Source of the DNA: Escherichia phage EP75
Direction: 5' to 3' (one strand)
Sequence record: MG748547
DNA: 64,000 nt
Position numbers and translations under genes: made by a program. A model generated the notes under the pieces. The model made no database searches, had not been told where the DNA came from, and saw only the letters and a program-made list of their open reading frames with translations. How positions within the stretch are numbered: position 1 is the stretch's first letter; each line of letters opens with the position of its first letter. This document shows positions 6,066 to 46,560 of this stretch, piece after piece.

Positions 6066-6734
6066 ATGCAAGAGATCACTCTTTCCGAACGCACTTTACA
6101 ACTGCTGGCTAACTTTGAAACCATCTGCCCCTCTATCGTTCTGGCACCTGGTAAAAAGTTGCGCACTGTTAACGATTCCAGTACAGTTATCGCTATTGCC
6201 GACATTGACGAAGACTTCCCGTTCGAATTCCCGATTCTGGATCTGACCAAATTGCTGGCAATCCAGCGTCTGCCGAGTTTTAAAGGTGGTAAAATTGAAA
6301 TGTCGGAAGACCACATTTTGCTGAAAGGTGAAAACTCCCAACTGCAATTCTGGCGTTCCGCTAAAGAACTGACTGTCGTTCCGGCAGACAGCATCGATCT
6401 TCCGTCTGTAGAATTTGAAGCAACAGTCACTCCTGAAAAAATGAAAGAGCTGACTCGCGCCTGTTCTACTCTGGGCCACAAAACTGTACGCCTGGTGGCC
6501 AGCGGCGGTAAAACTCGTCTGGTGGGCACGACCACTACTATCGACAATTCCAACGATTACACTGTTGAGTTGGGTGAAACAACTCTGGGTGATTTTGCTA
6601 TGCCTGTTGATGTGGTCAACCTGAAAATGATCGAAGGCAACTATGTGATCCGCGCCTGTGCCGAAATGCAACTGGTTAACTTCCAATCCGCAGATGGCAC
6701 CATCAACTATTACGTCGGCATGCAGCTGGATTAA
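6066..6734 (+). CDS. 45: sliding clamp (gp45-like)
   Basis: 222 aa; N-terminus LSERTLQLLANFETICPSIVL aligns with T4 gp45 N-terminus; size and position before clamp loader genes. Confidence 0.9.
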   Translation: MQEITLSERTLQLLANFETICPSIVLAPGKKLRTVNDSSTVIAIADIDEDFPFEFPILDLTKLLAIQRLPSFKGGKIEMSEDHILLKGENSQLQFWRSAKELTVVPADSIDLPSVEFEATVTPEKMKELTRACSTLGHKTVRLVASGGKTRLVGTTTTIDNSNDYTVELGETTLGDFAMPVDVVNLKMIEGNYVIRACAEMQLVNFQSADGTINYYVGMQLD

Positions 6735-6764
6735 TCAATAACGATTCGGCGCTTTATTATCGGT

Positions 6765-6796
6765 GGCGGGGTTTCCCCGCCCTTTGAAACGTTTTA
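6765..6796 (+). terminator. intrinsic terminator after gene 45
   Basis: GGCGGGG-TTT-CCCCGCC hairpin followed by T-rich tract. Confidence 0.5.
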
Positions 6797-8257: not shown

Positions 8258-8722
8258 ATGGCGCGTAATACGCTGGACATCTTGAAACTTTCAGCCGTTA
8301 ACGATGAGGCCAGCATCGTTGATTGTATGGTTGAAGTTCAATTAAACCAAGATAAACCAGGAATTTTTCTGGGTATCAAGGAAACTCTGAGCCGGATAGG
8401 GGTTAACACTCGTCAAGAGCCGAATACCCTGTATCAAACATGTCATATCCTGCATAAATTTGGCAGATATCACATCGTGCACTTCAAGCATCTTTTCATG
8501 CTGGATGGGCATTACAACGGCTTTACGCGTGAAGATGTCCTGCGTATGAATCGGATTATTCGGCTTTTGGAGCAGTGGAATATGGTTAAAATACTGCATC
8601 CGGAACAGATTACCGAAGTTGCTGATATGTCTCGAATCAAAGTTGTAAAACATGACCAAGTTTCTGATTGGAAACTGGTTCCAAAATATACCATCCGCCC
8701 GAGTCGGGCAAAAAGCGAATAA
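8258..8722 (+). CDS. regA: RegA translational repressor
   Basis: Segment LYQTCHILHKFGRYHIVHFKHLFMLDG ... WKLVPKYTI aligns with T4 RegA; N-terminal extension of about 30 aa relative to T4; strong SD AAAGGGG. Confidence 0.85.
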   Translation: MARNTLDILKLSAVNDEASIVDCMVEVQLNQDKPGIFLGIKETLSRIGVNTRQEPNTLYQTCHILHKFGRYHIVHFKHLFMLDGHYNGFTREDVLRMNRIIRLLEQWNMVKILHPEQITEVADMSRIKVVKHDQVSDWKLVPKYTIRPSRAKSE

Positions 8723-9602: not shown

Positions 9603-9626
9603 TATAAACCGTTATTCATTAAACAA

Positions 9627-9652
9627 CAGAGGCTATAATGGCCTCTGTTTTT
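9627..9652 (+). terminator. intrinsic terminator
   Basis: CAGAGGC-TATAATG-GCCTCTG hairpin followed by TTTTT. Confidence 0.6.
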
Positions 9653-10898: not shown

Positions 10899-11010
10899 AG
10901 AATCGCTTTACTTCATTCTTCAATAACCCCCTTTCAACGTATATTGACCTCACTTTAACGACGCGCCCATTTAGGGCGCTCAATTTGAACTGAAACAGGA
11001 AGACTACACC

Positions 11011-14756: not shown

Positions 14757-14789
14757 GCTCTGAATAATATTTCAACCTGTCAATAATAT

Positions 14790-14826
14790 AATGCCCGGTT
14801 ATATTCAATCGGGCATTTTATTATAT
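14790..14826 (+). terminator. intrinsic terminator
   Basis: AATGCCCG...CGGGCATT hairpin followed by TTTATTATATT. Confidence 0.5.
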
Positions 14827-15082: not shown

Positions 15083-17291
15083 ATCATTAACATTTAAGAA
15101 TGCGGTTGCGACTGTCGCGCCGTCTAACCATGTAATCGTTGTGGATATCTCCGGTTCCATGTATCGTTCACTTCCAGAAGTTCGTAAGCATCTGAAGGAG
15201 AACCTGCCTTCCCTGGTGAAACCGGAAGATACTGTGAGCATCCTTTACTTTTCATCTCGCGGTGATTTCGGAACGGTATTTGCCGGACGTCAGATTAACA
15301 GTGCAACTGATCTCACTGAGATCAATAATCTAATTGACCGCTTCCTGCAACCGTCGGGATGTACGGGATTTGTAGAACCTCTGAAATTGGCTGCTGAAAC
15401 CGCGTTGAGTCTGAACAAACCTGGTTATGTCAATAACCTGGCGTTCATGACCGACGGTTATGACAACTGCTGGCGCTCTAATGAAATTCTGGCAGCAGCT
15501 GAAGTACTGCCCAAAGCGTTTGATAACATTACCTTCATCGAATACGGTTGGTATTGTAATCGCGAACTGCTGGCTCTGATGTCCGAGCGTTCTGGCGCGA
15601 CCCACGTGTTTGCCGAAGGTCAGACTGAATATCAGACCGAACTGGAAAACGTACTGAAATCATCTACGCCGAAAGTGGTTGTTGATGTTCCCCTGGTTTA
15701 CACTCATGCCATCTACGTTGAAAACGGCGTGGCAACTGTGCTAGCCATACAGCCAGATGAAGAACACCCGATTGGCCACGTGAGCATTCCTGAAAGCGTT
15801 TCTCAGCTGTGGGTTGTAAACCCCAACATGATCGACCAGCTGGACAATCTGGCCGACATCCAGGCGGCATACGTGCTGGCATTTTATGGCGTGTATACCA
15901 TGGATGCCGATCTGGTTTGGGCTGCGCTGAAGAAGACAGGCGACGTCCGCTTCATCAAACAATACAGCAACTGTTTCACCAAGCAGGACTATTCCAACAT
16001 CAAAGTCGACCTGACCCAGGCTATCGTGGATGAAACTCTGCGCGGCGTAGATGGTATCGATTACAACATGGTTCCAGCTGAAGATGCGACGACCATTGTT
16101 GATGTCTTGACCTATCTGGCCGAAGCCGACGTCTCTGTTGTCACTAAGCATCCGTTGTTCTCTTACAACAGCATCGGTCGCGGAACTGTGCAGAAAGTTG
16201 ATGACACAGAAGACAAGCTGGCTGAACAAATCGCCGAAGCCAAAACCAAAGCAGAGCGTAAAGCGCTGGCTCTTAAACTGGCCGAGCACGAAGATTGGAC
16301 GCCGGAATTTACTCCGGTTGACGACAAAGGGATTGTCCCAATTAGCAATCTGGTCTACAATTCAGAGCGCCCTAACATCAGCATTCAGACCGTTCAGCAC
16401 GGGACGGTTGTTGTGCCGGAGTTCGTACAGAAGAAATATGAACTTCCTGAAGAACTGGGAACCTGGCGTTATCGTAATTACACCATCGTCAAAGATGGCA
16501 TCATCAACCTGAAGACGATGCCGATTACTGCTGAATCTCCGATTGTCCGAGCTAAGGTTGTCCAAGATTTGACCGCCATGGGCGTTAATGTGTTTGGTGG
16601 TCCGGAAATCTTTATCGTTAATTTAGAAAGCGTTCCAATGGTCAACCGCGCCATGACCAAGAATATCAGTGCTGCCGAATTCTTCGCCGACAACGTTCGT
16701 CGCGAAGCGCTGAAGGCAAAACAGAAAGTTCTGAAATTCTATCGTGATGAACTGGTTGGCAAAGGTAATGCAACAGGCCTGGCGTCTAAATATGGTAAAG
16801 AAGCCGCCGATTTCTTGTCAGCAAATGGCATTCGTGACTACGGGTTCTCACCGAAAACTACTTCTGTGGAATCAACCGACGTCTACATGAGTCGTGAACT
16901 GAACGTGAAAATCAAAGGTGCTTCGTCGCTGCCGAGTATTGCGTCTGTTGTTAAAAAGCAAGCAGACGGTAAAAAACTGAATGTCGCTGATCAGTTGATT
17001 GCTAATGCTCTGGCCGAATACAACGCTTTTGTTAAATCTCCAATGATCACCAGCGTACCTGAAGAGACTCAGAAAAAGCTGATTGAAAGTTGGATTGGCG
17101 ACGCAGCAAAAGCAGCCATCAACGAAGTCCGCGCCCTGAACAAAACGCTGTCTAAAGTAGTTTACGGCATCGTCGCTGGTCATGGTTGGTTCACTGATTT
17201 GGATCTGGAAGAGTCTACGATGGATGTAGAAGTTGATGGGGTGAAATACACCGTCACTGCCGAACTGGCCGAAAAAGAAATCAAGATCTAA
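15075..17291 (+). CDS. von Willebrand factor type A (vWA) domain protein, 739 aa
   Basis: ATG at 15075 (MIESLTF); complete MIDAS motif VVDISGSM plus downstream MTDGYDN; long C-terminal region of unknown function. Confidence 0.7.
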   Translation: MIESLTFKNAVATVAPSNHVIVVDISGSMYRSLPEVRKHLKENLPSLVKPEDTVSILYFSSRGDFGTVFAGRQINSATDLTEINNLIDRFLQPSGCTGFVEPLKLAAETALSLNKPGYVNNLAFMTDGYDNCWRSNEILAAAEVLPKAFDNITFIEYGWYCNRELLALMSERSGATHVFAEGQTEYQTELENVLKSSTPKVVVDVPLVYTHAIYVENGVATVLAIQPDEEHPIGHVSIPESVSQLWVVNPNMIDQLDNLADIQAAYVLAFYGVYTMDADLVWAALKKTGDVRFIKQYSNCFTKQDYSNIKVDLTQAIVDETLRGVDGIDYNMVPAEDATTIVDVLTYLAEADVSVVTKHPLFSYNSIGRGTVQKVDDTEDKLAEQIAEAKTKAERKALALKLAEHEDWTPEFTPVDDKGIVPISNLVYNSERPNISIQTVQHGTVVVPEFVQKKYELPEELGTWRYRNYTIVKDGIINLKTMPITAESPIVRAKVVQDLTAMGVNVFGGPEIFIVNLESVPMVNRAMTKNISAAEFFADNVRREALKAKQKVLKFYRDELVGKGNATGLASKYGKEAADFLSANGIRDYGFSPKTTSVESTDVYMSRELNVKIKGASSLPSIASVVKKQADGKKLNVADQLIANALAEYNAFVKSPMITSVPEETQKKLIESWIGDAAKAAINEVRALNKTLSKVVYGIVAGHGWFTDLDLEESTMDVEVDGVKYTVTAELAEKEIKI

Positions 17292-17299
17292 ATCTAATT

Positions 17300-17323
17300 G
17301 GCGGGGCCAACCCGCCTTACTTT
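17300..17323 (+). terminator. intrinsic terminator
   Basis: GGCGGG-GCCAA-CCCGCC hairpin followed by TTACTTT. Confidence 0.5.
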
Positions 17324-17329
17324 CAGGAA

Positions 17330-17647
17330 ATGAATATGAGCAACAAACCGACTTATGTTGATGTAATGCGCGTTTTGGCCCAATACGCGTGTGACAATCT
17401 AAACATGGAAACTTGGCGCGACGGCGACCATAAAGAAAAGTTCGATAATATCGACGACAACATTGATGCGTTGGCTCCTCTTCGGGCCAAGAGCGATCTC
17501 GGTGGTGATGATCTTGACATGATTGAACTCATCATGGAAGTTGAAGAACAATATGATGTTGAAATCAGCGATGAATGGGTAGGCAAACATGGTGATGACC
17601 CCACGCTCGGCGCATTGGCTGAATTGGTAGTTGCCCTCAGCAAGTAA
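17330..17647 (+). CDS. acyl-carrier-protein-like protein with Asp in place of the phosphopantetheine serine
   Basis: DLGGDDLDMIELIMEVEEQYDVEISDE aligns with ACP core [27 protein letters not shown] but has DDL where ACP has DSL; alternative ATG at 17336. Confidence 0.55.
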   Translation: MNMSNKPTYVDVMRVLAQYACDNLNMETWRDGDHKEKFDNIDDNIDALAPLRAKSDLGGDDLDMIELIMEVEEQYDVEISDEWVGKHGDDPTLGALAELVVALSK

Positions 17648-17654
17648 CCAAAAG

Positions 17655-17690
17655 AATCCCCAATAAAATATTGGGGATTTTTACTTTTAG
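17655..17690 (+). terminator. intrinsic terminator
   Basis: AATCCCCAATA-AAA-TATTGGGGATT hairpin followed by TTTTACTTTT. Confidence 0.6.
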
Positions 17691-17692
17691 GG

Positions 17693-17722
17693 GTTTACTT
17701 CCTCTAAAGAATGTCCTATTAT
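17693..17722 (+). promoter_or_regulatory. T4-type early (sigma70-like) promoter
   Basis: -35 GTTTAC (17693..17698), 18-nt spacer, -10 TATTAT (17717..17722); directly downstream of a terminator. Confidence 0.5.
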
Positions 17723-17768
17723 TCAATAACTGGCTAACGTGGGGTTGGCTAGAAAAAGGAGATACAAA

Positions 17769-18008
17769 ATGAAACTACCAGGTCACATTGAAGTTTATAT
17801 GCGGTTATACAAAGAAGGTAACGCCGCTGCTAAAGAACTACACGAACTGATTTTGTCATACGGCGTTAAGTCTGTTACAGGAGTAAAGAACAAAAAAATA
17901 GACGGCGAATATGTGTCAATCAATGGGCGTGGTCTGAAAACCAACCCAACATATTTTGTGGGTGTCCATTTAGACACAGGGAAAGAAGTCGTGGAGATCG
18001 TGGCATAA
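17769..18008 (+). CDS. hypothetical small protein
   Basis: 79 aa, strong SD AAGGAG, downstream of early promoter. Confidence 0.45.
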   Translation: MKLPGHIEVYMRLYKEGNAAAKELHELILSYGVKSVTGVKNKKIDGEYVSINGRGLKTNPTYFVGVHLDTGKEVVEIVA

Positions 18009-18247
18009 TGTCTAATAAGAAAGTTGAAACGACAGTAGAAATTGATCGTAATTGGGGATTACTCCGCGCTAAAGGTTTTCGTCGCGTTTATATGACCAAG
18101 GAAGTTTATGTTCAGCGGCGCGACGTTATTATCAGCAAGAAAGGTAAAGAATGGGTTGCTGAAGAAGTTGACATTGAAACAGGTGTCGTGGGCAAAGTAA
18201 AAGCGAAGGCGGCTATTTTGTTTGCTCTTCTGAAGCATATCAATTAA
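18008..18247 (+). CDS. hypothetical small protein
   Basis: 79 aa, start overlaps previous stop (TAATG). Confidence 0.4.
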   Translation: MSNKKVETTVEIDRNWGLLRAKGFRRVYMTKEVYVQRRDVIISKKGKEWVAEEVDIETGVVGKVKAKAAILFALLKHIN

Positions 18248-18260
18248 TTCTATAATTTAC

Positions 18261-18290
18261 GGCGGGGTATGATTACCCCGCCTATTTGAA
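18261..18290 (+). terminator. intrinsic terminator
   Basis: GGCGGGGTA-TGAT-TACCCCGCC hairpin followed by T-rich tract. Confidence 0.55.
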
Positions 18291-18293
18291 ATT

Positions 18294-18311
18294 GCAGGAA
18301 CTATATCATGA
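18294..18311 (+). repeat. conserved translation-initiation repeat GCAGGAACTATATCATGA (copy 1 of 3)
   Basis: Near-identical 18-mers at 18294, 33953 and 46646, each containing the start codon of a small early gene and preceded by TTGAA. Confidence 0.6.
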
Positions 18312-18586
18312 CAGATCAAAGAAGTATTGCTCGTTCGGAAATCAAAGATATTATACAGAGCAAGACCAACGAAACTCATGCTCAATCCAGAATGCTATCT
18401 CGATTTGTTGAAATTAAGTTCGACATTGAAGAGAATAACAATCGGAGAGCGCTGGAGGGAATGTTGGCGATTATCTTGGGCCATGTCACCAATTCAGCAT
18501 ATGACATGGATGATTTAACTCGTTTGTTGAACGCCCAGAATAACGTTGGGAATTCTGTTCGTGAATTGCTGTTTAAGTCCGAATGA
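18308..18586 (+). CDS. hypothetical small protein
   Basis: 92 aa; start lies in conserved initiation repeat GCAGGAACTATATCATGA. Confidence 0.4.
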   Translation: MTDQRSIARSEIKDIIQSKTNETHAQSRMLSRFVEIKFDIEENNNRRALEGMLAIILGHVTNSAYDMDDLTRLLNAQNNVGNSVRELLFKSE

Positions 18587-18623
18587 ACTAACTAAGGGAT
18601 AACCCTATATCCCGAGGTGTGAC

Positions 18624-19073
18624 ATGTTCCTTACATCCTTTATTGACTGGATGAATATCATAAATGGCCTGAGGATCCCTGTTGGGAACCTCGGGCTTTC
18701 TCGTTCTTCTATGCCGCAAATAGATGCCGACAAACAAGAAGATTTTCACAAATATCTTGAAGACAACGGTGTGTCCATAGATGCTGCGCAAGTGCCCATC
18801 AAAATGCTTCGTCTTACCCAGAACGAAATCAATAAAATGAAGGTCTGGAAGATCATGAAGCAAATCAGAAATAAGAAACCTATGGGTCGAGTTTGGGTGT
18901 CTTCTGACAATTACGTTGTTGACGGTTCTCACCGATTTGTCGCTGCGTTGAACATGGATGGTAAACAGCGAATGAAGGTCTACAAAGTTGATTTACCCGC
19001 GATGGAATTCGTAAAACTCGCCAAACAATTTCAGGGTGTGCGGTACAGAACGGTCAGTGATACCCGTTTCTGA
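18624..19073 (+). CDS. ParB/Srx-like nuclease domain protein
   Basis: 149 aa; NYVVDGSHRFVAA resembles the ParB-like nuclease VVDGHHR motif. Confidence 0.45.
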   Translation: MFLTSFIDWMNIINGLRIPVGNLGLSRSSMPQIDADKQEDFHKYLEDNGVSIDAAQVPIKMLRLTQNEINKMKVWKIMKQIRNKKPMGRVWVSSDNYVVDGSHRFVAALNMDGKQRMKVYKVDLPAMEFVKLAKQFQGVRYRTVSDTRF

Positions 19074-19152
19074 ATACGATAGTTTATTGAAACCCTTTAC
19101 TCAACATGGTGAGCCGACTATCATTTTATCCAATGAAATAAGGAGAATCACC

Positions 19153-19842
19153 ATGAAACATTTAATCCTCGGGGTTGTGCTGGCAGGTCTGGCATTACCC
19201 GCCGCCGCCAAGCTGAACTCCACAGGTGAGAAACTGTGGTCTGATCTTTCCTACTGTGCTGGGTTCTCCCAGGCGGTCGCTATCGACAAGTCCGGTTCCA
19301 TAGAGAATTTTGCTGAACTTTGGAACACGGGTAACGTCTCCACTGCTGTTGTTAATGCTGGGATTGAGTTCAACCGTTACAAACAGGGAGCCTACAACTT
19401 GAAAGGCTACCTGAATGACGATGAATTTAACCGAGGAGGCATGGAGGCTGGCGATCTCATCATGACTGGCCGTATGGGCACACAAGGCCGTATGACTGTA
19501 AGGCAATGCCGTTCTCTCCCCTCTCCGGCATTACAGAAGGGTGTGCAAATCGGGCGTCGACATCTGGATCTGATCAATGATGGCAACCAATGCATCAAGG
19601 TGTTTGAATATAGTGCCGACCAAGAATCAGATCGACGTTTGAAAAAGGAATGGCGGACACGCGCCCTTGGATTGAGAGCATGGCTCGTAGAAAACGATTA
19701 TTACTACGAGGATCGTGTTCAGAACGGATTGAAAGATCTTTCTACTAATTTGTCTGTCAATCTAGACGACCCAAGGCTTTCGCGTGAACTCAAGCAAACA
19801 CGGATTGACTGCGACAATATGATGAAGGAGAACGAAAGATGA
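19153..19842 (+). CDS. secreted/periplasmic protein, function unknown
   Basis: AAGGAG SD; N-terminal signal peptide MKHLILGVVLAGLALPAAAK; several Cys. Confidence 0.5.
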   Translation: MKHLILGVVLAGLALPAAAKLNSTGEKLWSDLSYCAGFSQAVAIDKSGSIENFAELWNTGNVSTAVVNAGIEFNRYKQGAYNLKGYLNDDEFNRGGMEAGDLIMTGRMGTQGRMTVRQCRSLPSPALQKGVQIGRRHLDLINDGNQCIKVFEYSADQESDRRLKKEWRTRALGLRAWLVENDYYYEDRVQNGLKDLSTNLSVNLDDPRLSRELKQTRIDCDNMMKENER

Positions 19843-20159
19843 GAAACATAATATTCTTGTTATTCTTTTCTATGTTAGCATCATTCCAAGTTATGGCAAC
19901 TCCGGCCAGCAAATTGAATATATGTGCGGCCTGGTTGTCTACTTATCAACAATTTCACCCTGATGATAAAGATACATCCATCCTTTTATCAGATTATGAA
20001 GGTGAGTTGAAACGCCTTGATCTCTACAGCGTGGATCAAATAGAGAATGCTTTAGATTTGCCAATGATGGAGTCCGCTGCCGATAATAGCAAACAGACGA
20101 TCAAAGATCTGACTATGTGTCGGGAAATAGCGACTAATTTCGTTGGAAATCAAAGATAA
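19839..20159 (+). CDS. small secreted/periplasmic protein, function unknown
   Basis: 106 aa; hydrophobic N-terminus MRNIIFLLFFSMLASFQVMA; ATGA overlap with upstream gene. Confidence 0.45.
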   Translation: MRNIIFLLFFSMLASFQVMATPASKLNICAAWLSTYQQFHPDDKDTSILLSDYEGELKRLDLYSVDQIENALDLPMMESAADNSKQTIKDLTMCREIATNFVGNQR

Positions 20160-20206
20160 TTTTCAGGTTAAAATTTAACTTCCATTGAACTGAAAGGAAA
20201 TACTTC

Positions 20207-21016
20207 GTGATGATTATTACTAAAAAGATCGCCGAATCGATCGTTGAAAAGAATAAGATGTTCGCGCCCAACAAAGCAAAGGTCATTCTGATTCACGAAG
20301 ACGGGCGCGTCATCTTCGCTGAGAAGTTTGAGCAGGGTTGTGCTTTCTGGTTCGCAGATACTATGCGCGAAAGCAAGCTGCAGGGCATCATCTATAAATT
20401 AACCCTGGTTGCCAAGCGCAATGATCAGGGTGATTGGGTTACGGTCTGCGATTTCAGCTCTAAGGTAGAAGCTAAACCCAAAACTCGCCAAGAAAGGATT
20501 TTAGAGGCTCAGGAAAAACTTCGGGTTGCTCGCACATCATCCGCGGAGAAGCCGGAAATAAAACCAGCCGTTATTCCTGTCACCAATAATCCGCTCCCAC
20601 CTGTGGGTCAAAAGGCTTTCGAACAATATGTTGAAAAGAGAAAAGAAGAATCTATGAAGACTCCGGTAGAAAATAATGATGAGTCTGAATTTATTTCAAT
20701 ACGACAGTTGTGCCCGCAAGAACAACGTTATTCTTCTCCAAATGATTTATTTGTGTCATTCCGATGCAACGGAAAGATCATATTGTGTAAAACTCTGCGT
20801 GAACAACTACCATGGCCTAACATCAATATGATGGTGAGTCGCAATTTTAAACGATTTGCTATTAGTGAAGGGAACGATTATCCCGTAAACAAGAGCGGAA
20901 CGTATGCCAACAAACATATGTGTGGTAAGTTGTCTTTCCCTAACGATTCCGGAACCATCCGCGTTCGTTTAGAATGGGATGAAACCCTGAACATGTATGT
21001 TGGTGATATAAAATAA
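20207..21016 (+). CDS. hypothetical protein
   Basis: 269-aa ORF, no family recognised. Confidence 0.45.
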   Translation: MMIITKKIAESIVEKNKMFAPNKAKVILIHEDGRVIFAEKFEQGCAFWFADTMRESKLQGIIYKLTLVAKRNDQGDWVTVCDFSSKVEAKPKTRQERILEAQEKLRVARTSSAEKPEIKPAVIPVTNNPLPPVGQKAFEQYVEKRKEESMKTPVENNDESEFISIRQLCPQEQRYSSPNDLFVSFRCNGKIILCKTLREQLPWPNINMMVSRNFKRFAISEGNDYPVNKSGTYANKHMCGKLSFPNDSGTIRVRLEWDETLNMYVGDIK

Positions 21017-21030
21017 TTCAATAACATTAG

Positions 21031-21059
21031 GGCGGTTATTATTAAACCGCCTTTTATTT
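21031..21059 (+). terminator. intrinsic terminator
   Basis: GGCGGTT-ATTATTA-AACCGCC hairpin followed by TTTTATTT. Confidence 0.55.
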
Positions 21060-21073
21060 GAGAGATCTATATT

Positions 21074-21742
21074 ATGAATAAGAAGAGTCGTATCATCATC
21101 GGCGCGGATCAGGGAAATCTGTATTTTGATACAACTGGTGCTATTGCCCACGCCATCCTTCCAACAGGTATTTCTGTTTATTGTGTCGAACATCCAGATC
21201 CAGCGATCAAACGACTTTGTTACATCCATCGTGAAAAGGGATTGATTGTATTACCGGAAGGCGCAATTATGCGCGCTCGTTCTTGGCCGATCGATTTTAA
21301 TTCCATGACCGCCAGAGAGATTGACGCCCGTTTCTTCGCATACAATATGAATCGAACTTTAAGGAACGAAACTCAAAGAGTTGCCCATTTCGATAATGAA
21401 ACATATACCGTGACATTAGAATTTCGCGTTCTTGGTGAAGCTCTTCAGGTAAAGAAAACGAGTTGGGCAACCGAAGGGACGTTTACCAATGATTATGCTC
21501 TTATCGATAGATTGTGTAATCGGTTCCGAATTAGCCTGACTGCGAATGAAGATTTGGGAGAATATGTATCATGGACAGCTCGTTCTCCACATATGAATGG
21601 GATCATGATGGAGAGCGGGACTCGTAATCGTGCTGTTCTTCAGCTGCTGTTGTTAGATGCGTATTCTCGCAATCCTCTGGAATATTTGTCTCGAGAGCAA
21701 ATCGACAACGCTCTTTCCCATTGCAATCGTCTGGAGGTGTAA
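21074..21742 (+). CDS. hypothetical protein
   Basis: 222-aa ORF, no family recognised. Confidence 0.45.
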   Translation: MNKKSRIIIGADQGNLYFDTTGAIAHAILPTGISVYCVEHPDPAIKRLCYIHREKGLIVLPEGAIMRARSWPIDFNSMTAREIDARFFAYNMNRTLRNETQRVAHFDNETYTVTLEFRVLGEALQVKKTSWATEGTFTNDYALIDRLCNRFRISLTANEDLGEYVSWTARSPHMNGIMMESGTRNRAVLQLLLLDAYSRNPLEYLSREQIDNALSHCNRLEV

Positions 21743-21743
21743 T

Positions 21744-22031
21744 ATGTCCGGCGTATGGTGTGATGTATTATTAGTGAGATTTTCAAACGGGATGGATAAC
21801 CAGATTATTTCATTCTTTTATCCTGTTCCCTTTTCTTCTATGGGTCTGACTGTCAAGCGCGTTCTTGACATAGAAGAAAAACTCAACGCCATGCCGTATA
21901 TGGCGCGACCACACGTGCTGGGTTGTGAACTGTTAAACGAAATGATGATCGATGAGAATCTTGTTGAAACAATTATCACGCGTGAACAGATGAAAACCAT
22001 ACTGGCTCAGGGAGAACCCCATGTCGAATAA
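21744..22031 (+). CDS. hypothetical small protein
   Basis: ATG at 21744 with GGAGGTG SD, in frame with ORF 21657..22031. Confidence 0.35.
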   Translation: MSGVWCDVLLVRFSNGMDNQIISFFYPVPFSSMGLTVKRVLDIEEKLNAMPYMARPHVLGCELLNEMMIDENLVETIITREQMKTILAQGEPHVE

Positions 22032-22341
22032 ACCGTTTGAACTTAAATTTCGCGTTTGGCATATTCCCCAGGTTCCTGGGATCGCTTTTCATGTTGAGGT
22101 TCCAACATTTGAAGAAGCGCAGCGCCTGAAGAATGCTCTGGGTGATTATGATTTGTTCCAGTTCAACAACAATATCAAGCCGGATTATTGCAATGCTTCG
22201 GGCATTCAGATTTATCAACATGATCTGACCGATGATGATCTTAATGATATGGGTCTGGATGATCGTTGGGTTGATATGGAAGATGTTGACGAACTCAACG
22301 ATTATTTCGAGCATCTGCGCAGTACAGGGTGGGAAATATGA
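22021..22341 (+). CDS. small acidic protein, function unknown
   Basis: 106 aa; C-terminal half very rich in Asp/Glu. Confidence 0.4.
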   Translation: MSNKPFELKFRVWHIPQVPGIAFHVEVPTFEEAQRLKNALGDYDLFQFNNNIKPDYCNASGIQIYQHDLTDDDLNDMGLDDRWVDMEDVDELNDYFEHLRSTGWEI

Positions 22342-22646
22342 TTTCAAAATATATTGTAAAGCCTGGGGATACTCTGTCCAGCATCGCTCTAAAATTATAT
22401 GGTGATGCCCAACAGTATATCAAATTAGCCAGATTCAACAATATCCAAAACCCAGGCCATATCGCGGTTGGTCAGGTTATTTGTTTACCCACACCTGTCG
22501 AAGACAAAGAACACATTATGATTCCGGTTCAACCGACTCAGAAGTGTTTGGATGCGATAGCTGGTTTATTTCGGCCAGGTTTTTGTGATGGAACTATTGA
22601 ACGTCACATTTATCAAGCAATTGTGGAAAACGCAGGTGTAAAATGA
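22338..22646 (+). CDS. LysM domain protein
   Basis: YIVKPGDTLSSIALKLYGDAQQYIKLARFNNI matches LysM peptidoglycan-binding motif; ATGA overlap upstream. Confidence 0.55.
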   Translation: MISKYIVKPGDTLSSIALKLYGDAQQYIKLARFNNIQNPGHIAVGQVICLPTPVEDKEHIMIPVQPTQKCLDAIAGLFRPGFCDGTIERHIYQAIVENAGVK

Positions 22647-22852
22647 TCGGATTAATTCGTTACCTGTTCATATTCGTAATTTCAACATTCATTTTATTTT
22701 TCTTTTTCAAATACTTGAAAGAGACTAAAATCTACCGAAGTAAACGTTGGCGCAAACGGGTGAGGGCAACTTTCCTGCTGCTGATTTCTTCGGTTACAAT
22801 AACCGCACTCACATTGGGTGCTTATATCTACATTTTTGAAGGGGTACATTGA
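22643..22852 (+). CDS. small integral membrane protein (two predicted TM helices)
   Basis: 69 aa with two hydrophobic segments separated by a basic loop; ATGA overlaps on both sides. Confidence 0.45.
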   Translation: MIGLIRYLFIFVISTFILFFFFKYLKETKIYRSKRWRKRVRATFLLLISSVTITALTLGAYIYIFEGVH

Positions 22853-23643
22853 TGTTCAAGAAACTGGTGTTCGGTGCAATTATGGTTCTGGCTGCAAGTC
22901 TACTTTCTGGTTGTGGTGGCGTTATCGATGAAGGTAACGTCGGCGTTCGTACCCAATGGGGTGAAGTAGACATGAACCCTGTAACGGCGGGGATCTACAC
23001 CAGCTTTGTTTCAAGCGTGGATGTTTACACGACCAAAGAAGCCGTTGTGAGTCTTACTAAAATGACTCCAAAGGCGAAAGACAACCTGACTCTGGAAGAC
23101 TTGGATGTAGATGTTTATTACACACCCAACGTCGCAAAGGTTCCGTGGTTCCATACCAAATTTGCTGGCCAGAGCGCTGAACTCGATGATGGCACGATAG
23201 CGGTGGGTTTCAATCTGGTTAAAACTGCTGCATCATCTTCTTCAATGGACGCCGTTTCTTCTCTTGATTCTATGACAATTCACACCCAACGTGCTGAATT
23301 GGAGAAGATGATTAAAGATCGCACTCAGCAACAATTAGAAACTGCTGCGCCTGGTATGTTCACAATTACACGCGTGTTAGTGAAAAAGGCGCTGACAGAT
23401 CCTTCTATTGAGCAGTCTATCCGTGATAATGTTATGGCGGACAAACGATTGGATACGGCAAGAAAGAACGTTGAAATTCGCGAGCAAGAAGCCCAAGCGA
23501 ACCAAAAACTGACCACCTCGCTGACGCCTGAATATCTACAACATGAATATAACATGGTGTTACAATCATGCGCCAACAGTGGAAAATGTACTCTGATCGT
23601 TGACGGATCCGGCTCAGGTAAAATGCTGAACGTCGGCAAATAA
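22852..23643 (+). CDS. lipoprotein with SPFH (band-7/HflC-like) domain
   Basis: Signal peptide plus lipobox LLSGC; EGNVGVRTQWGEV resembles the SPFH N-terminal motif of HflK/C; coiled-coil C-terminus. Confidence 0.5.
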   Translation: MFKKLVFGAIMVLAASLLSGCGGVIDEGNVGVRTQWGEVDMNPVTAGIYTSFVSSVDVYTTKEAVVSLTKMTPKAKDNLTLEDLDVDVYYTPNVAKVPWFHTKFAGQSAELDDGTIAVGFNLVKTAASSSSMDAVSSLDSMTIHTQRAELEKMIKDRTQQQLETAAPGMFTITRVLVKKALTDPSIEQSIRDNVMADKRLDTARKNVEIREQEAQANQKLTTSLTPEYLQHEYNMVLQSCANSGKCTLIVDGSGSGKMLNVGK

Positions 23644-23726
23644 ACGCTTTATTCAATAATATTTGTTAGGTAAGCTGTAGTCCTCTTGTAGTGAAACATT
23701 GTAAACAACTAACTGGAGTAATCCGA

Positions 23727-24005
23727 ATGAACCGTACTGATTTTATCGCTCACATCGCCCAGACTCAGGGTATGACCAAAGGCGAAGCAGAGAAGATCGT
23801 GGCATCTTTTATCAACGGCGTAAAAACTGCAGTCGCAGCTGGCCAATCTGTCCAATTCGTCGGCTTCGGCGCGTTTGAAGTTAAACATCAGGAAGCGCGC
23901 ACTGGCCGCAACCCGCTGAACGGGCAAGCGATTCAGATCGAAGCGAAAAATGTTGTTAAATTCAAAGTCGGCGAAGGTCTGAAAGCTGCTGCCAACGGCC
24001 AGTAA
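23727..24005 (+). CDS. HU/IHF-family DNA-binding protein
   Basis: 93 aa; VGFGAFEVKHQEARTGRNPLNGQAIQIEAKNVVKFKVGEGLK aligns with bacterial HU; GGAG SD; strong terminator downstream. Confidence 0.8.
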   Translation: MNRTDFIAHIAQTQGMTKGEAEKIVASFINGVKTAVAAGQSVQFVGFGAFEVKHQEARTGRNPLNGQAIQIEAKNVVKFKVGEGLKAAANGQ

Positions 24006-31570: not shown

Positions 31571-31902
31571 AAGTTGTCCACTTCAAGAAGGAGCCATACG
31601 ACGTCTACATTGGTCGCCCTGGTAAATGGGGAAACCCGTTCGAGGTCAAAGACCACGGGCGGGGAAACTGTATTGAGTTGTTTGAAGACGACTTGTATGT
31701 GCGCCTGATTGAAGGGGATATCGCCGAAGATGAACTCCTTGAATTAGATGGAAAGACCTTGGGATGCTGGTGTAAGCCGCGCCCATGTCATGGAGATGTT
31801 TATGTCAAAGTGATCGGTCGTATTAAACTATTCCGTAAGTTGGGTAAATCTTTTACTGAATATTTGAGACAAACATATGCGAAAAGTTCTTGTAAAACTT
31901 GA
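31567..31902 (+). CDS. DUF4326-like protein
   Basis: YIGRPGKWGNPF ... GCWCKPRPCHGDV matches the conserved pattern of the phage DUF4326 family. Confidence 0.5.
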   Translation: MKVVHFKKEPYDVYIGRPGKWGNPFEVKDHGRGNCIELFEDDLYVRLIEGDIAEDELLELDGKTLGCWCKPRPCHGDVYVKVIGRIKLFRKLGKSFTEYLRQTYAKSSCKT

Positions 31903-32245
31903 TTGCCATCCATATTTCCCAGACATTTGGTTCACTAACAGTCGCATACTCTTTTTACAACAATTATCTAAAATAAGGGATGAAGGTATCATACATGATT
32001 TAGAAGATACTATCGGTATGGTTAGTTCCGATGAAAGTCGTGGAAAGATGGTGGTCGGAGTATTCATTTCAGATTCAGGTGTGTTGGTACATGAACTGAG
32101 CCATGCGGTAATAAACATATTTGAAGCCGTCAATATGGTAGCTAACACTCACACCACGGAAGCATTTGCCTACCTGTTAGAGAGTCTGTATAACCAATGT
32201 AATCACCATCTGAACTTATGGAGTTCTTTTGATGAGCCGAGATGA
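31877..32245 (+). CDS. hypothetical protein with HExxH motif
   Basis: VLVHELSHAV zinc-metallopeptidase-like motif; start overlaps previous gene by 26 nt, start uncertain. Confidence 0.3.
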   Translation: MRKVLVKLDCHPYFPDIWFTNSRILFLQQLSKIRDEGIIHDLEDTIGMVSSDESRGKMVVGVFISDSGVLVHELSHAVINIFEAVNMVANTHTTEAFAYLLESLYNQCNHHLNLWSSFDEPR

Positions 32246-33224: not shown

Positions 33225-33862
33225 TGAATATCACTCCATCTCAGACCGGATATGAACACATAATGGTATTTCTGGCTATTCAGGGCGCGAAGGAAGGGAT
33301 CATTACTTCAGAATATTCCGGTACAATGCGCCTTGCGGATTATGTCGCGCCTGAAGCATTCATCAAGAAATGCATTGACGCTTGGTGCCTTTATGCGCTC
33401 GGCACGTATCCATCACCTCCTGCTGGTGAGTTATTGTTTGCCATACCGACTCCGGCAACTGGTGACACAGACGCGATATTCGCTGATATGCTGTCAAAGG
33501 GTTATCTGACATATGACAGTGCTCACGGCGTGTATGATTTTTCTGCGCTGAATCGTATCTTCGGATTCACCATAACTTCTGAAGCCAATATTCCTGATTA
33601 TGGAATACTAGCATGGGGCGTCGACGGTTTGGGGGCAACATATGCATCTTCGGATGTCGGTCCTGTGTTGATAGACCCAGGGGTGACGATGGAGCAATAC
33701 ATGTCACAATTCCCTCAACATAATGTAACCGGAAGCGATATCATTATTGTCTATCCTGGTTCTAACGCGTTGTCCCGCCTGGTGGACGGCTGGAAGCCTC
33801 AGCTGAAGGACATTGTCTCTGGAATCAGGTTCCATATTCCCGTTGTCAATCCAACACCTTAA
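33224..33862 (+). CDS. hypothetical protein
   Basis: 212-aa ORF, TAATG overlap with upstream gene. Confidence 0.45.
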   Translation: MNITPSQTGYEHIMVFLAIQGAKEGIITSEYSGTMRLADYVAPEAFIKKCIDAWCLYALGTYPSPPAGELLFAIPTPATGDTDAIFADMLSKGYLTYDSAHGVYDFSALNRIFGFTITSEANIPDYGILAWGVDGLGATYASSDVGPVLIDPGVTMEQYMSQFPQHNVTGSDIIIVYPGSNALSRLVDGWKPQLKDIVSGIRFHIPVVNPTP

Positions 33863-33874
33863 AATATTCAATAA

Positions 33875-33897
33875 AAGGGGCAAAAGCCCCTTTACTT
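33875..33897 (+). terminator. intrinsic terminator
   Basis: GGGGC-AAAA-GCCCC hairpin followed by TTTACTTCTT. Confidence 0.55.
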
Positions 33898-33918
33898 CTT
33901 CAATAACCCACGTATAAT
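33891..33918 (+). promoter_or_regulatory. T4-type early (sigma70-like) promoter
   Basis: -35 TTTACT (33891..33896), 16-nt spacer, -10 TATAAT (33913..33918); -35 overlaps the terminator U-tract. Confidence 0.6.
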
Positions 33919-33952
33919 TCTAAACATAAGCAGTACGACACCAACTTGAAAA

Positions 33953-33970
33953 GCAGGAACTACATTATGA
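33953..33970 (+). repeat. conserved translation-initiation repeat (copy 2 of 3)
   Basis: GCAGGAACTACATTATGA, 2 mismatches to copies 1 and 3. Confidence 0.6.
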
Positions 33971-34242
33971 AAATCATCCTCGACGCATATATCCGTTACG
34001 GCAGCAAATGGTTGATGGCCAAAGTTTACGACGGTGAAGAATTAGTCCACGCCCAAACCGCCCCTTCTGAACAATTGCGTGAAATTATGAAACGCGATTT
34101 TCCTACTGTTGAAATGATTGAACCTGCCAACCAAACCGAAGTTGACAAAGAATGGGAACGCGAATGGAGTCCGGCGGCGTTGGCACAATTTGATAAGAAT
34201 TACAACAATCGCCAAAACGCGTCTCGCCCGTTCCGTCGTTAA
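33967..34242 (+). CDS. hypothetical small early protein
   Basis: 91 aa; start within conserved initiation repeat GCAGGAACTACATTATGA. Confidence 0.4.
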   Translation: MKIILDAYIRYGSKWLMAKVYDGEELVHAQTAPSEQLREIMKRDFPTVEMIEPANQTEVDKEWEREWSPAALAQFDKNYNNRQNASRPFRR

Positions 34243-34320
34243 GAATAAAGGGGTGTTAGCATCCCTTTCTTTTCGCTAATTAAGGGAAACCGCACCGATT
34301 TTATAATCAGGAGAATTACA

Positions 34321-36759: not shown

Positions 36760-37329
36760 ATGAAACCGTTTATAGAATATTTTAAAGAACAAGCTCAACA
36801 ACCGCAAACTCATGGCGGCATACAAGGCAAAAGTGTAACCATCACCAAACAGGCCGACGGAACCCAATGGTGTACTGGTGCCACCGTGACCCAGATCACT
36901 CCAGATAATCAGGCCGACATCTATAATCTGGAATTGACTAACGGCAACACCACCAAAGTAAAACTCACACCGGACCAGGTTCATGCAGTTTCTGTCGGTA
37001 AAGATGTGGTTGCCGTTCATGACGGTTTTGAGTTCTTCTTTGGGAAAGATGCCAGCAAAGGTCAGGTCACAGAATCCTATGCCCAAGAATTGGCGAACAT
37101 GGATAAGATGATCGGTAAAGCGCTGGGCGTTGGCAAATCTCGTAAAAGCGGTCGTACAGAGTTTGAATATTCCGGTATTCCTGGTATTGGAAAACCTGTC
37201 GCAATCGACTTCGGCGGAGAAGACGATCCATATGTAATTGTCACAGTCGCTGGCAAACAGCATGACATCAGTAAGGGAAAAACCCTAGCTGCGGACATTG
37301 CCAAATATATCGGCGTTAAACCTGTCTAA
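36760..37329 (+). CDS. internal-protein-like protein
   Basis: N-terminus MKPFIEYFKEQAQQ resembles the T4 IP capsid-targeting sequence (MKTYQEFIAEA). Confidence 0.45.
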   Translation: MKPFIEYFKEQAQQPQTHGGIQGKSVTITKQADGTQWCTGATVTQITPDNQADIYNLELTNGNTTKVKLTPDQVHAVSVGKDVVAVHDGFEFFFGKDASKGQVTESYAQELANMDKMIGKALGVGKSRKSGRTEFEYSGIPGIGKPVAIDFGGEDDPYVIVTVAGKQHDISKGKTLAADIAKYIGVKPV

Positions 37330-37338
37330 GGAGGTTGT

Positions 37339-37581: not shown

Positions 37582-37585
37582 TGAC

Positions 37586-46553: not shown

Positions 46554-46560
46554 TATTTCA

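Follow-up and report, generated by a model that had tools for sequence, protein, structure and literature searches.

Intergenic DNA of Escherichia phage EP75 carries a small family of repeated units, each joining a terminator hairpin, a T4-early-type promoter, and a near-identical ribosome-binding leader. The stretch analyzed here, hereafter the window, comprises 64,000 nucleotides of sequence record MG748547. Its source is a ViI-like Kuttervirus (Ackermannviridae), which places it outside the T4-type phages in the strict sense. To judge from sequence comparison, different small genes stand behind these units in related phages, in a manner that appears comparable to the PeSL cassettes of T4-like phages, and the earlier reading of the units as PeSL-like modules is partly supported. 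A second promoter-like unit, built on a TTCAATAA box and apparently undescribed, was found alongside them. The cassettes would accordingly count as a further case of the known PeSL kind, and TTCAATAA as a new putative promoter box. At gathering thresholds, no Rfam family matched within the window.

The early-type promoters, which we call class A, were collected with the pattern TTTAC[TA]-N16-18 followed by a hexamer agreeing with TATAAT at five or more of six positions, against a background of 300 dinucleotide shuffles. Six sites were observed in the window versus 0.84 expected (shuffle maximum 4). All six are intergenic, in a window of which 6.7% is intergenic DNA, and all six lie on the + strand, as do the hairpins, leaders, and ORFs described with them. 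A hairpin, TTTACT, and a −10 hexamer had been predicted at 17655, 33875, 39770, and 46561, and all four sites are as described, with spacers of 16–17 nt; the motif also occurs elsewhere in the genome, and the sites at 19096 and 57820 are additions to the earlier list. Stable hairpins (−13.6 to −17.1 kcal/mol, z = −3.6 to −4.9) lie upstream of four of the six promoters, adjoining or overlapping them at 17694, 33891, and 46580. The sites at 19096 and 57820 have no hairpin and, in the relatives sampled, no indel. Phage Mooltan, with 145 kb, has only eight intergenic class A sites, again all on the + strand, and overall density is about eight promoters per 157-kb genome. A generic sigma70 scan was set aside, its signal being weak (about 1.5–2.3 sd above shuffles per segment, n = 3; e.g., 42 vs 34.1 ± 5.4).

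The first of these units begins 3′ of an acyl-carrier-protein gene with a putative intrinsic-terminator hairpin (17652–17682; U-tract TTTTTACTTTT) of −16 to −17 kcal/mol (z = −4.9). Its stem reads CCCCAAT/ATTGGGG or CCCCAAC/GTTGGGG among relatives, a compensatory change, and Mooltan and Mutine carry a terminator annotation for it. The promoter (17694–17722) consists of TTTACT at 17694–17699, 17 nt, and TATTAT at 17717–17722. Across nine Kuttervirus genomes the two hexamers do not vary, whereas most of the spacer sequence differs and its length stays the same, and an ortholog is retained in Klebsiella phage cp19. A 5′-UTR hairpin (17730–17754; −12.6 kcal/mol, z = −5.1) then precedes the Shine-Dalgarno sequence and the ATG at 17769; Se-G and maane spell its stem differently (CTGGCGAAC...GTTCACCAG) with pairing preserved. 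Directly behind lies an accessory ORF of 79 aa (17769–18008) without Pfam match. It is missing in four of eight relatives (Pa-sanjiao, Se-G, Se-J, and maane) and in cp19, and where it is missing the leader runs directly into the homolog of the 18008 gene.

A full cassette occupies 33867–33970, where TTCAATAA is followed by a hairpin (33874–33893), TTTACT (33891–33896) with tc-TTCAATAA behind it, TATAAT (33913–33918) after a 16-nt spacer, and a 48-nt leader ending in a variant of the shared 18-mer (33953–33970). The replaceable unit behind it (33967–34268) holds an ORF of 91 aa and its own terminator hairpin (34247–34268). One unrelated ORF takes this slot in KEP4 and barely and another in Se-J, each with its own hairpin. 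Three or more mutually unrelated ORFs, every one paired with a terminator, are known from this slot, and their left breakpoint is the leader ATG. The cassette at 46560–46663 is similarly arranged, its hairpin (46560–46582) overlapping TTTACT (46580–46585), followed by 17 nt, TATACT (46603–46608), a 51-nt leader, and the 18-mer (46646–46663). Orthologs in Dickeya phage RC-2014 and Klebsiella phages T751 and cp19 keep TTTACT-N17-TATACT, with differing spacers and compensatory changes in the stems. An accessory ORF of 77 aa (46660–46893), inserted at the leader ATG, is precisely absent from SenASZ3 (upstream DNA 99.4% identical), RC-2014, T751, and cp19; without it the leader leads into the homolog of the 46895 gene, and homology at this locus ends at query positions 334–340, that is, at the ATG. 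In phage SilasIsHot, two full cassette copies enclose an additional ORF of 128 aa, and their junctions have GGGGCTTTACTT in common.

In the cassette at 39770–39943, a hairpin (39770–39790), an A+T-rich stretch, and TTATTGAA (39821) precede TTTACT (39835–39840). The 17-nt spacer includes c-TTCAATAA (39842), and TATTAT (39858–39863) and a UTR hairpin (39870–39900) follow. Its leader, ACTACATTATG (39918–39928), is succeeded by a second in-frame start at 39941, and the cassette is conserved in cp19. All six relatives that cover the site have an extra 193-bp insertion at 39727/39728, 42 nt upstream of the hairpin, which corresponds to a 207-bp gene in Mooltan and Mutine. Of the two added promoters, the one at 19084–19124 (TTATTGAA, N4, TTTACT, N17, TATCAT) is predicted to drive the gene at 19153; across nine genomes its hexamers are invariant and its spacer variable, and no ortholog was detected in cp19. 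The other, at 57805–57847 (TTCAATAA, N7, TTTACA, N16, TATATT), is invariant in six genomes. The idea that the terminator U-tract doubles as the −35 thus describes the sites at 33891 and 46580 and misdescribes the other two: at 17655 the U-tract TTTACT (17680) is a separate copy, and it is another TTTACT, 14 nt downstream, that has the correct spacing for a −35; at 39770 the hairpin stands 44 nt upstream of the −35, behind the A+T-rich stretch.

The units also share a leader. The 18-mer GCAGGAACTATATCATGA occurs exactly at 18294 and 46646 and with two mismatches at 33953 (0.09 expected), and, as predicted, it holds the start of three small ORFs (18308, 33967, and 46660); the 18294 copy, however, lies behind a TTCAATAA module and not a TTTACT promoter. 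Because the three encoded proteins are unrelated, gene duplication is ruled out as the origin of the common 18-mer. A shorter leader motif, ACTAYATYATG, is found at four sites, and the leader and ribosome-binding consensus is TTGAA-N2-3-GCAGGAACTAYATYATGA. The copies retain, at the 3′ end of the unit, the downstream gene's Shine-Dalgarno sequence and its start codon, and conservation includes the Shine-Dalgarno-to-ATG spacer and the first base past the ATG, at unrelated ORFs. From promoter to ATG the four units are 72–81% identical over about 80 nt, and on this basis we class them as true paralogs, beyond mere consensus matches. Between the −35 and the ATG, the 33891 unit shares 81% identity with the “P-A” copy (Mutine L001:2670–2749), located immediately 5′ of the window, 78% with Mooltan P15774, and 75% with the 46580 unit (z = 9–14). 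As a query, the 33891 cassette has 566 matching places in 270 records, about two per genome; matches in LIMEstone1 and May were rejected as orthologs of the 33891 promoter and are orthologs of the paralogous P-A copy. At 39926/39941, Mooltan P127890, and the KEP4 slot, “scar” starts occur, a further Shine-Dalgarno sequence and ATG lying behind the ATG of the cassette. The PhiW-14-like contig L005, in which seven promoters of the early type fall within 4 kb, has a related recurring leader, AGGAA(A)CTACannATG. Searching IMG/VR with an exact 16-mer leader pattern returned mostly chance matches in unrelated contigs and was useful for only a few Ackermannviridae and PhiW-14-like loci.

Within Kuttervirus, the footprint of these units is consistent: −35 and −10 hexamers are invariant, spacers are rewritten at constant length, and stems carry compensatory changes. 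The same combination of fixed hexamers, changed spacers, and compensatory stems is seen in Limestonevirus and Taipeivirus, where coding DNA is about 75% identical. When ORFs behind early-type promoters were compared with Pfam and PHROGs, only PHROG families of unknown function were matched apart from one Rz-like spanin, and no Pfam family scored above its curated cutoff.

Gene content behind the cassettes turns over, in line with the expectation of variable small ORFs there: at 17769, 18308, 33967, and 46660, relatives lack the ORF that follows the leader or carry another in its place. In a large collection, homology breaks at the leader ATG (33970, 46662) in about half of the genomes. The 33967 query is matched at ≥80% coverage in only 131 of 270 records, and in several genera the match ends at query 410–411, window positions 33969–33970, which is the leader ATG(A). 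A breakpoint at the ATG is also to be expected where a conserved regulatory region stands beside non-homologous ORFs, whatever the mechanism of insertion. Inserted ORFs are bracketed by module repeats of 46–61 nt in Mutine, Se-G, and bering, versus an overlap of ≤8 nt at all other indels in the sample; such ORFs between two copies were seen in relatives, none within the window itself. The slot at 18248–18311, for instance, is empty in the window, holds denV in Mooltan, and in Mutine holds an ORF annotated as an ADP-ribosylase, which is bracketed by two module copies.

The predicted correlation of cassettes with variable gene content amounts to a trend only. Among eight relatives, indels occur at 5/8 of the originally listed junctions plus 18262 vs 25/81 others (p = 0.08), and at 3/6 of the TTTACW sites alone vs 27/83 others (p = 0.32). 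About 25 other junctions vary without a cassette, among them sites of homing endonucleases and small intra-operon ORFs, and the cassettes explain only part of the gene turnover here. In the sampled regions no ORF was found to occupy different slots in different phages. A slot-to-slot move of the cassette ORF of Klebsiella phage May was considered and rejected, because this ORF and its 35%-identical homolog in Mutine both sit behind orthologous P-A cassettes.

Motifs in excess of chance, paralogous and conserved across genera, with alternative ORFs behind them and duplicated cassettes around inserted ORFs, are most readily understood, in our opinion, as composite intergenic regulatory cassettes that probably double as homology patches for PeSL-type modular shuffling of ORFs. 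The G+C hairpin would halt the upstream transcript, and transcription would restart at once at a promoter (TTTACT, 16–17 nt, TATAAT-like hexamer; T4 early type) read by host sigma70 RNA polymerase, each cassette providing a shared leader and ribosome-binding site. Because a sequence of about 80–105 nt is repeated in the genome and in co-infecting relatives, the cassette could act as a homology patch at which small accessory ORFs would be inserted, lost, and exchanged. We infer promoter and terminator activity, early timing, and recombination within, rather than beside, the cassette as the cause of these exchanges from the sequence patterns.

It is possible, if somewhat doubtful, that the units are ordinary conserved operon-start signals, that turnover proceeds by illegitimate recombination and homing endonucleases, and that accessory genes are simply tolerated at operon boundaries. 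Such an account sits comfortably with an indel association that is not significant, with indels that mostly lack a cassette and overlap by only 3–8 nt, and with the low cassette density, and it makes the ATG breakpoints trivial wherever a conserved leader meets unrelated ORFs. It has more difficulty with ORFs between two module copies—46–61-nt repeats or full cassettes—an arrangement that crossover inside the module should yield, with 72–81% identity of leaders even at positions without a known consensus role, and with the multi-allelic slots at three leaders.

Two further explanations address parts of the unit. The leader (TTGAA..GCAGGAACTAYATYATGA) might be kept mainly as a post-transcriptional operator that co-regulates early accessory genes, with shuffling incidental, and a RegA-like translational repressor (gene at 8258–8722) or an RNase would be candidates to act on it. 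Conservation that spans the Shine-Dalgarno-to-ATG spacer and the first post-ATG base at unrelated ORFs, a regA homolog annotated in relatives, and the related leader in the PhiW-14-like contig all point this way, but common descent of the cassettes together with selection for efficient initiation predicts the same conservation. To our knowledge the leader is also unlike the T4 RegA SELEX site, and we regard a primary operator role as unlikely. Very improbable, we believe, is that there are no promoters here at all, TTTACT being an interrupted terminator U-tract and the TATAAT-like hexamers chance occurrences in A+T-rich spacers. TTTACT at 33891, 46580, and 17680 does lie physically within a terminator tail, and the generic sigma70 scan rises only modestly above shuffles. 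Yet the hexamer, the 16–17-nt spacing, and the −10 are kept at 39835, 19096, 57820, and the second TTTACT at 17694, all outside terminator tails; the six sites stand against 0.84 expected, and the −10 hexamers are invariant across genera despite changing spacers.

PeSL cassettes are known from the T4-like phages RB49/phi1, T4/PST, and KVP40/nt-1 (Arbiol et al. 2010, PMC2839356; Comeau et al. 2014, PMC4122927). As originally predicted, the anatomy matches: in both, an intergenic G+C stem-loop lies by or over a sigma70-type early promoter, and the unit ends in a Shine-Dalgarno sequence and ATG. Both also occur in multiple copies per genome, with neighboring ORFs that differ between close relatives and some ORFs bracketed by two copies, and the class A consensus is of the T4/PST type, TTTACW-N17-TAYWAT (PMC4122927, PMC2839356). 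The differences are of host family and degree. The present units belong to Ackermannviridae, their conserved part reaches through a 45–50-nt leader, their association with indels is only a trend, and promoter and terminator activity and mini-circle formation, which belong to the PeSL description, are here putative. They number about eight per genome, in contrast to dense arrays in hyperplastic regions such as the eight PeSLs within about 5 kb of RB49 (Arbiol 2010; Comeau 2014); no such density was found among the six sites of the 64-kb window or the roughly eight in 145 kb of Mooltan.

The region 33891–34268 also recalls lambdoid morons, in that it places one small ORF, with promoter and terminator of its own, between conserved genes. 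Morons, however, lack bounding repeated conserved sequence and often lie on the opposite strand (PMC2839356), whereas at 33891–34268 promoter and leader form the conserved repeat and only ORF and terminator are exchanged. Closer to home, T4-like early, middle, and late promoters have been predicted in Dickeya phage LIMEstone1, of another Ackermannviridae genus, five of them early promoters identified by T4 similarity (Adriaenssens et al. 2012, PMC3296691), and the early promoter type is therefore not new for the family. The promoter and terminator passages of that paper do not describe cassette structure, a shared leader, paralogy, or a link to gene content. The CBA120 paper considered early promoters not identifiable by informatics, and in a 2024 review of Ackermannviridae the words promoter, transcription, and terminator are absent. 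Literature searches for PeSLs in Ackermannviridae and for transcriptomes of the family found nothing relevant.

Alongside the cassettes stand the TTCAATAA modules, or class B, defined as TTCAATAA, 12 ± 1 nt, and a −10 hexamer without usable −35, often in a terminator loop. Nine matches occur in the window versus 1.05 expected, and the strict pattern TTCAATA[AG] occurs 11 times in Mooltan versus 0.18 expected, with a spacing peak at 12. In most modules, five of eight, the loop of the preceding terminator provides the −10, so that terminator and putative promoter overlap as one element. All those placed here are on the + strand. The module at 6734–6783, before clamp-loader genes, reads ATCAATAA, N13, TATTAT, a hairpin, and CTTTGAAAC; its cp19 ortholog reads TTCAATAT-N13-TAATAT, a hairpin spelled differently, and TTTTGAAAC. 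At 9615–9649, TTCATTAA and N11 lead to a TATAAT that is the loop of a terminator (9625–9649), and Klebsiella phages May and cp19 share an ortholog, TTCAATAT-N11-TATAAT. The same arrangement places TATATT in the loop of terminator 14790–14817 (14779–14824; GTCAATAA, N13), TATTAT in that of 21029–21053 (21017–21061; TTCAATAA, N12), and TATAAT in that of 58902–58930 (58892–58938; TTCAATAG, N13). The last of these precedes a thymidylate synthase, dUTPase, and UvsX cluster, and the 14779 module is the boundary of a 2.8–3.3-kb replacement in maane and Se-G.

A site near 10907 had been taken for a degenerate cassette. A distance of 27 nt separates its TTTACT from the −10, and relatives do not conserve that TTTACT; the element is instead a class B module (10919–10945), with TTCAATAA at 10919, N13, and TATATT at 10940, then a UTR hairpin (10963–10979) and the leader TTTGAACTGAAACAGGAAGACTACACCATG. 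TTCAATAA and TATATT are conserved in nine Kuttervirus genomes and in cp19, and an insertion of 478 bp or 1273 bp in relatives ends at this box. The module at 18248–18311 combines class B with the shared leader: the box TTCTATAA (18248–18255), which is TTCAATAA with one mismatch, precedes a hairpin (18261–18282) with a −10-like TATGAT (18268–18273) at its top, then TATTTGAAATT and the 18-mer (18294–18311). CTATAAA and TATAAATA were tried as the identity of this box and are not enriched. The ORF that starts within the 18-mer (18308–18586, 92 aa) is a variable allele, with divergent or longer content in its place in KEP4 and Se-J. Its protein matched no Pfam family above curated cutoff (sub-threshold BCCIP, 14.1 bits vs a cutoff of 27), and a search for related loci with it gave three loci only.

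Class B resembles the MotA-dependent middle promoters of T4 (Hinton 2010, PMC2988021) and the PmSL elements of vibriophage nt-1 (PMC4122927). The MotA box takes the place of the −35, at 12 ± 1 nt ahead of a sigma70-type −10 (PMC2988021); the TTCAATAA box has the same spacing, likewise with no usable −35, and is combined with a stem-loop ahead of replication and nucleotide-metabolism genes. It differs in the box, TTCAATAA and not (a/t)(a/t)(a/t)TGCTTtA, and in a −10 that is the terminator loop in five of eight modules. No MotA or AsiA homolog is known from ViI-like phages (PMC3184105), and comparison of 10 early ORFs with PHROGs and 10 with Pfam revealed none. Literature searches turned up nothing of relevance on TTCAATAA.

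Ackermannviridae—ViI, CBA120, LIMEstone, and relatives—are widely used in biocontrol and as reporter phages. Their prereplicative transcription signals have so far been essentially undescribed, and no middle-mode signal has been described for the family. The early-type cassette set provides testable transcription units and takes the PeSL concept, in which regulatory cassettes act as linkers for modular gene exchange, beyond T4-like phages. The slots behind the shared leader (17769, 18308, 33967, and 46660) are natural landing pads where foreign ORFs are tolerated, and obvious places for insertion of payload genes.

As a tentative proposal that may well prove wrong, TTCAATAA could be the box of an Ackermannviridae transcription factor that works like T4 MotA and activates delayed-early, or “middle,” promoters. 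Such a putative factor would switch on the −35-less promoters at the clamp loader, thymidylate synthase/dUTPase/UvsX, and other prereplicative genes. Several early promoters contain the TTCAATAA octamer as well, within their spacers (TTTACT-tc-TTCAATAA-N6-8-TATAAT), and the same factor could shut them off. Structurally, a weak candidate for this factor is the conserved 162-aa protein encoded at 39941–40429, behind the 39835 promoter. Were the TTCAATAA modules activator-dependent promoters, the long-open question of middle-mode control would become directly testable. The outcome would be a three-class program like that of T4, with an activator other than T4's and with TATAAATA, which is seen ahead of structural genes, as the late class.

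The phages considered here belong to Kuttervirus, family Ackermannviridae (ViI-like): positions 16000-24000 are 97.8% identical to the Salmonella phages Mooltan and Matapan, with 274 phage records matching the stretch, and positions 33560-34330 are 100% identical to Salmonella phage Marshall (KF669653.1). Up to 47.7 kb nearly all genes lie on the + strand, with replication, recombination and nucleotide-metabolism genes amid many small unknown ORFs. At all four sites where the original prediction had placed a terminator followed by an early promoter (17694, 33891, 39835 and 46580, by -35 coordinate), a stable hairpin (-13.6 to -17.1 kcal/mol, z = -3.6 to -4.9) does precede TTTACT and, 16-17 nt on, a TATAAT-like hexamer. 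A regular-expression scan of the window for such promoters (TTTACW-N16-18-TATAAT-like, class A) adds two further sites at 19096 and 57820. Six sites result, where 300 dinucleotide-preserving shuffles lead one to expect 0.84 and never yield more than 4; every one of the six is on the + strand, within the intergenic 6.7% of the window. Mooltan, scanned over 145 of its 157 kb, holds only eight intergenic class A promoters, again all on the + strand, six of which fall in the region matching the window. The additional claim that the U-tract of the terminator doubles as the -35 is borne out at 33891 and 46580 only, and not at the other two sites; for instance, at the site beginning at 39770 the -35 stands 44 nt downstream of the hairpin.

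Both hexamers are unchanged in nine Kuttervirus genomes, among which the spacer at 17694 keeps its length while most of its sequence changes, and that at 19096 differs in its 3' portion. Compensatory substitutions are found in the terminator stem at 17655 and in a 5'-UTR hairpin at 17730-17754. The 46580 unit is retained in Dickeya phage RC-2014 (Limestonevirus) and in Klebsiella phages T751 and cp19 (Taipeivirus), whose coding DNA is about 75% identical; these orthologs present TTTACT-N17-TATACT with differing spacers and with stems of CTG/CAG, CTC/GAG or CC/GG. cp19 also retains orthologs of 17694, 33891 and 39835, and no ortholog of 19096 was found there. Such a footprint is that expected of real sigma70-type promoters, presumably active, joined to real hairpins.

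Three small genes begin, as predicted, in a near-identical 18-mer, exact at 18294 and 46646 and with two mismatches at 33953 (0.09 expected); the shorter ACTAYATYATG occurs in the window only at 18300, 33959, 39918 and 46652. The three proteins starting in the 18-mer are unrelated to one another. Over the roughly 80 nt that run from the -35 to the ATG, the 33891 promoter is 81% identical to a paralogous copy just upstream of the window (Mutine L001:2670-2749), 78% to the Mooltan promoter at 15774 and 75% to that at 46580. Paralogue alignments reach z = 9-14 against shuffles, and the likeness extends to leader positions without a consensus role (CATAAGCAGYACRACAC...TGAAA.G.AGGAACTA). A 771-nt query around 33891 finds 566 matching places in 270 genomes. 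Because paralogue identity of 72% or more reaches into the non-consensus leader, matches number about two per genome and Mooltan has but eight intergenic promoters, the class A cassette family is real, paralogous and small.

We aligned the window with eight relatives (Mooltan, Mutine, Pa-sanjiao, Se-G, Se-J, KEP4, maane and bering) and refer to places behind a cassette leader where small ORFs differ as slots. The ORF at 17769-18008, immediately behind the 17694 unit, is absent from four of the eight and from cp19. Nothing occupies the slot at 18259-18319 in the window; Mooltan, Pa-sanjiao and Se-J have denV there, and Mutine, Se-G and bering have an ORF carrying the annotation RNA polymerase ADP-ribosylase. 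In these last three the insert lies between direct repeats of the module, 46-61 nt long. The ORF at 33967-34242, together with its own terminator, is swapped in KEP4, barely and Se-J for unrelated ORFs with their own terminators, the left breakpoint being the leader's ATG; the window's allele is found in only 131 of 270 genomes, and in several other genera the match ends at 33969-33970. The ORF at 46660-46893 is missing from SenASZ3 (99.4% identical upstream), RC-2014, T751 and cp19, where the leader abuts the homolog of the next gene. In SilasIsHot, an additional 128-aa ORF is sandwiched by two complete cassettes with a common junction sequence, GGGGCTTTACTT; such junctions are what a circular "cassette plus ORF" would produce if it integrated by a single crossover in the hairpin/-35 region. 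Elsewhere the cassette ATG is followed, a few codons on, by a second Shine-Dalgarno sequence and ATG (window 39926/39941, in frame; the Mooltan promoter at 127890, L003 about 16940-16964; the KEP4 slot homologous to 18294). These double starts look like scars of such events, possibly of insertion into the leader, or may instead be tiny upstream ORFs. In the sampled regions, no ORF turned up in more than one slot.

Plasticity extends throughout the region, with indel boundaries at about 30 of 89 gene junctions across the eight relatives. Homing or HNH endonuclease insertions (where annotated) of 540-750 bp occur in relatives without a cassette at 27203, 38661-38665, 42836-42872 and 63678-63687, which places them, in turn, between the gp55 and RNase H genes, at the start of the primase, ahead of nrdA and close to the helicase. 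Small ORFs in translationally coupled operons, absent from most or all of the compared relatives, likewise come without a cassette (22338-22646, 31877-32245, 37322-37585 and 40662-40994), and these four indels have junction overlaps of at most 8 nt. The predicted correlation between cassettes and variable genes emerges as a trend only: by Fisher's test the originally listed sites plus 18262 give 5/8 versus 25/81 (odds ratio 3.7, p = 0.08), the six TTTACW sites against other junctions 3/6 versus 27/83 (p = 0.32), and all modules of both classes 6/13 versus 24/76 (p = 0.24). Cassette events nonetheless differ in kind, as multi-allelic slots that begin at the shared leader and have long flanking repeats, whereas all other indels overlap by at most 8 nt.

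Promoter-early stem-loops (PeSLs) of T4-like phages are repeated intergenic units that combine a stem-loop with a sigma70-like early promoter, end in a Shine-Dalgarno sequence and ATG, are dense in hyperplastic regions, adjoin indels and form mini-circles (PMC2839356, PMC4122927). The units described here share this anatomy and, in relatives, the flanking repeats, but not the high density (six in 64 kb; about eight in 145 kb of Mooltan). Architecture, paralogy and several clear exchange events speak for the PeSL-type interpretation, while statistics tie the units only weakly to gene turnover and their function is putative. A dense, textbook PeSL-like array does exist outside T4-like phages, in a 165-kb contig distantly related to Delftia phage PhiW-14 (IMGVR_UViG_3300046457_000084, L005 6300-10300): seven units within 4 kb, each belonging to an ORF of roughly 120 aa, consist of a terminator, TTTACT-N17-TATAAT and a conserved leader, AGGAA(A)CTACannATG, which is related to that of the cassettes described here. 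The cassettes represent a known kind of element, previously undescribed for this phage family. No description of such cassettes appears in the Ackermannviridae literature searched, and a 2024 review of the family is silent on transcription; early promoters were sought in CBA120 and not found (PMC3184105), and the promoter and terminator passages on LIMEstone1 predict five T4-like early promoters and do not mention a cassette structure (PMC3296691).

A more novel element is a second module, class B, built on a TTCAATAA box. The box occurs 14 times in the window against 4.3 expected, and on both strands of Mooltan and the window it forms a bipartite motif with TATAAT, TATTAT or TATATT 12±1 nt on. 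The strict TTCAATA[AG] form numbers 4 in the window (0.075 expected) and 11 in Mooltan (0.18 expected), where within the 11-13-nt range the spacing peaks at 12 in 7 of 11; with one mismatch allowed in the box, the window has nine matches (1.05 expected). Eight of these nine lie at + strand gene junctions (6734, 9615, 10919, 14779, 18248, 21017, 39842 and 58892), and Mooltan modules lie at L004 4454, 7440, 11852, 25820 (-) and L003 19031, 22361 (+). Class B modules lack a usable -35 at the 17-nt position. An intrinsic terminator has the -10 hexamer as its loop in five of the eight, and the distance from -10 to ATG is 30-34 nt in four of them. Box and -10 are conserved in relatives and cp19 at orthologs of 9615, 10919, 18248 and 6734. 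The element at 10907, originally read as a degenerate TTTACT cassette, is therefore class B, as is the hairpin leader before 18308; the upstream TTTACT at 10919 is not conserved in relatives.

Genes downstream of class B modules include a clamp loader and a thymidylate synthase/dUTPase/UvsX cluster, among others. A related variant at 37986 with 14-nt spacing, CTCAATAG-N14-TATAAT, precedes the primase operon. Genes of all these kinds are middle genes in T4. The class B spacing is that of the T4 MotA box, "12 bp ± 1 from the -10" (PMC2988021), although the box sequence differs, and the module as a whole resembles the promoter-middle stem-loops (PmSLs) of phage nt-1 (PMC4122927); no MotA or AsiA is known from ViI-like phages (PMC3184105). 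TTCAATAA also appears in class A spacers, as TTTACT-tc-TTCAATAA, at 33891 and 39835, in the copy just upstream of the window, at Mooltan 15774 and in four of five cp19 orthologs. The reality of the motif is well supported, and its function as a module is putative. The inverse of the box, TTATTGAA, stands 4-6 nt upstream of the -35 in three TTTACT promoters (window 39821-39849 and 19084-19091; Mooltan L004 about 15757-15790). At 39835 and Mooltan 15774, TTATTGAA-N13-TTCAATAA straddles the -35, an arrangement that could be an operator or UP-like element.

The T4-type late box TATAAATA occurs four times in the window and is not enriched: the copies at 436 and 647 (+) immediately precede ORFs of unknown function, and those at 51107 and 55904 (-) immediately precede baseplate and tail genes on the - strand. 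Such a placement agrees with a scheme of three promoter classes and with the annotation of gp55/gp33 homologs in relatives. An element of about 50 nt (GCCTCCATGGC..GGAATGGGACTGCCTGTCAAGGCGGTGTTACGAG) is found at 49883-49937 (-) and at Mooltan L004 25956-26004, in copies 94% identical, each 116-117 nt ahead of a baseplate gene, a different one in each case; it forms two hairpins, one with a compensatory change, with an energy only weakly better than that of shuffles.
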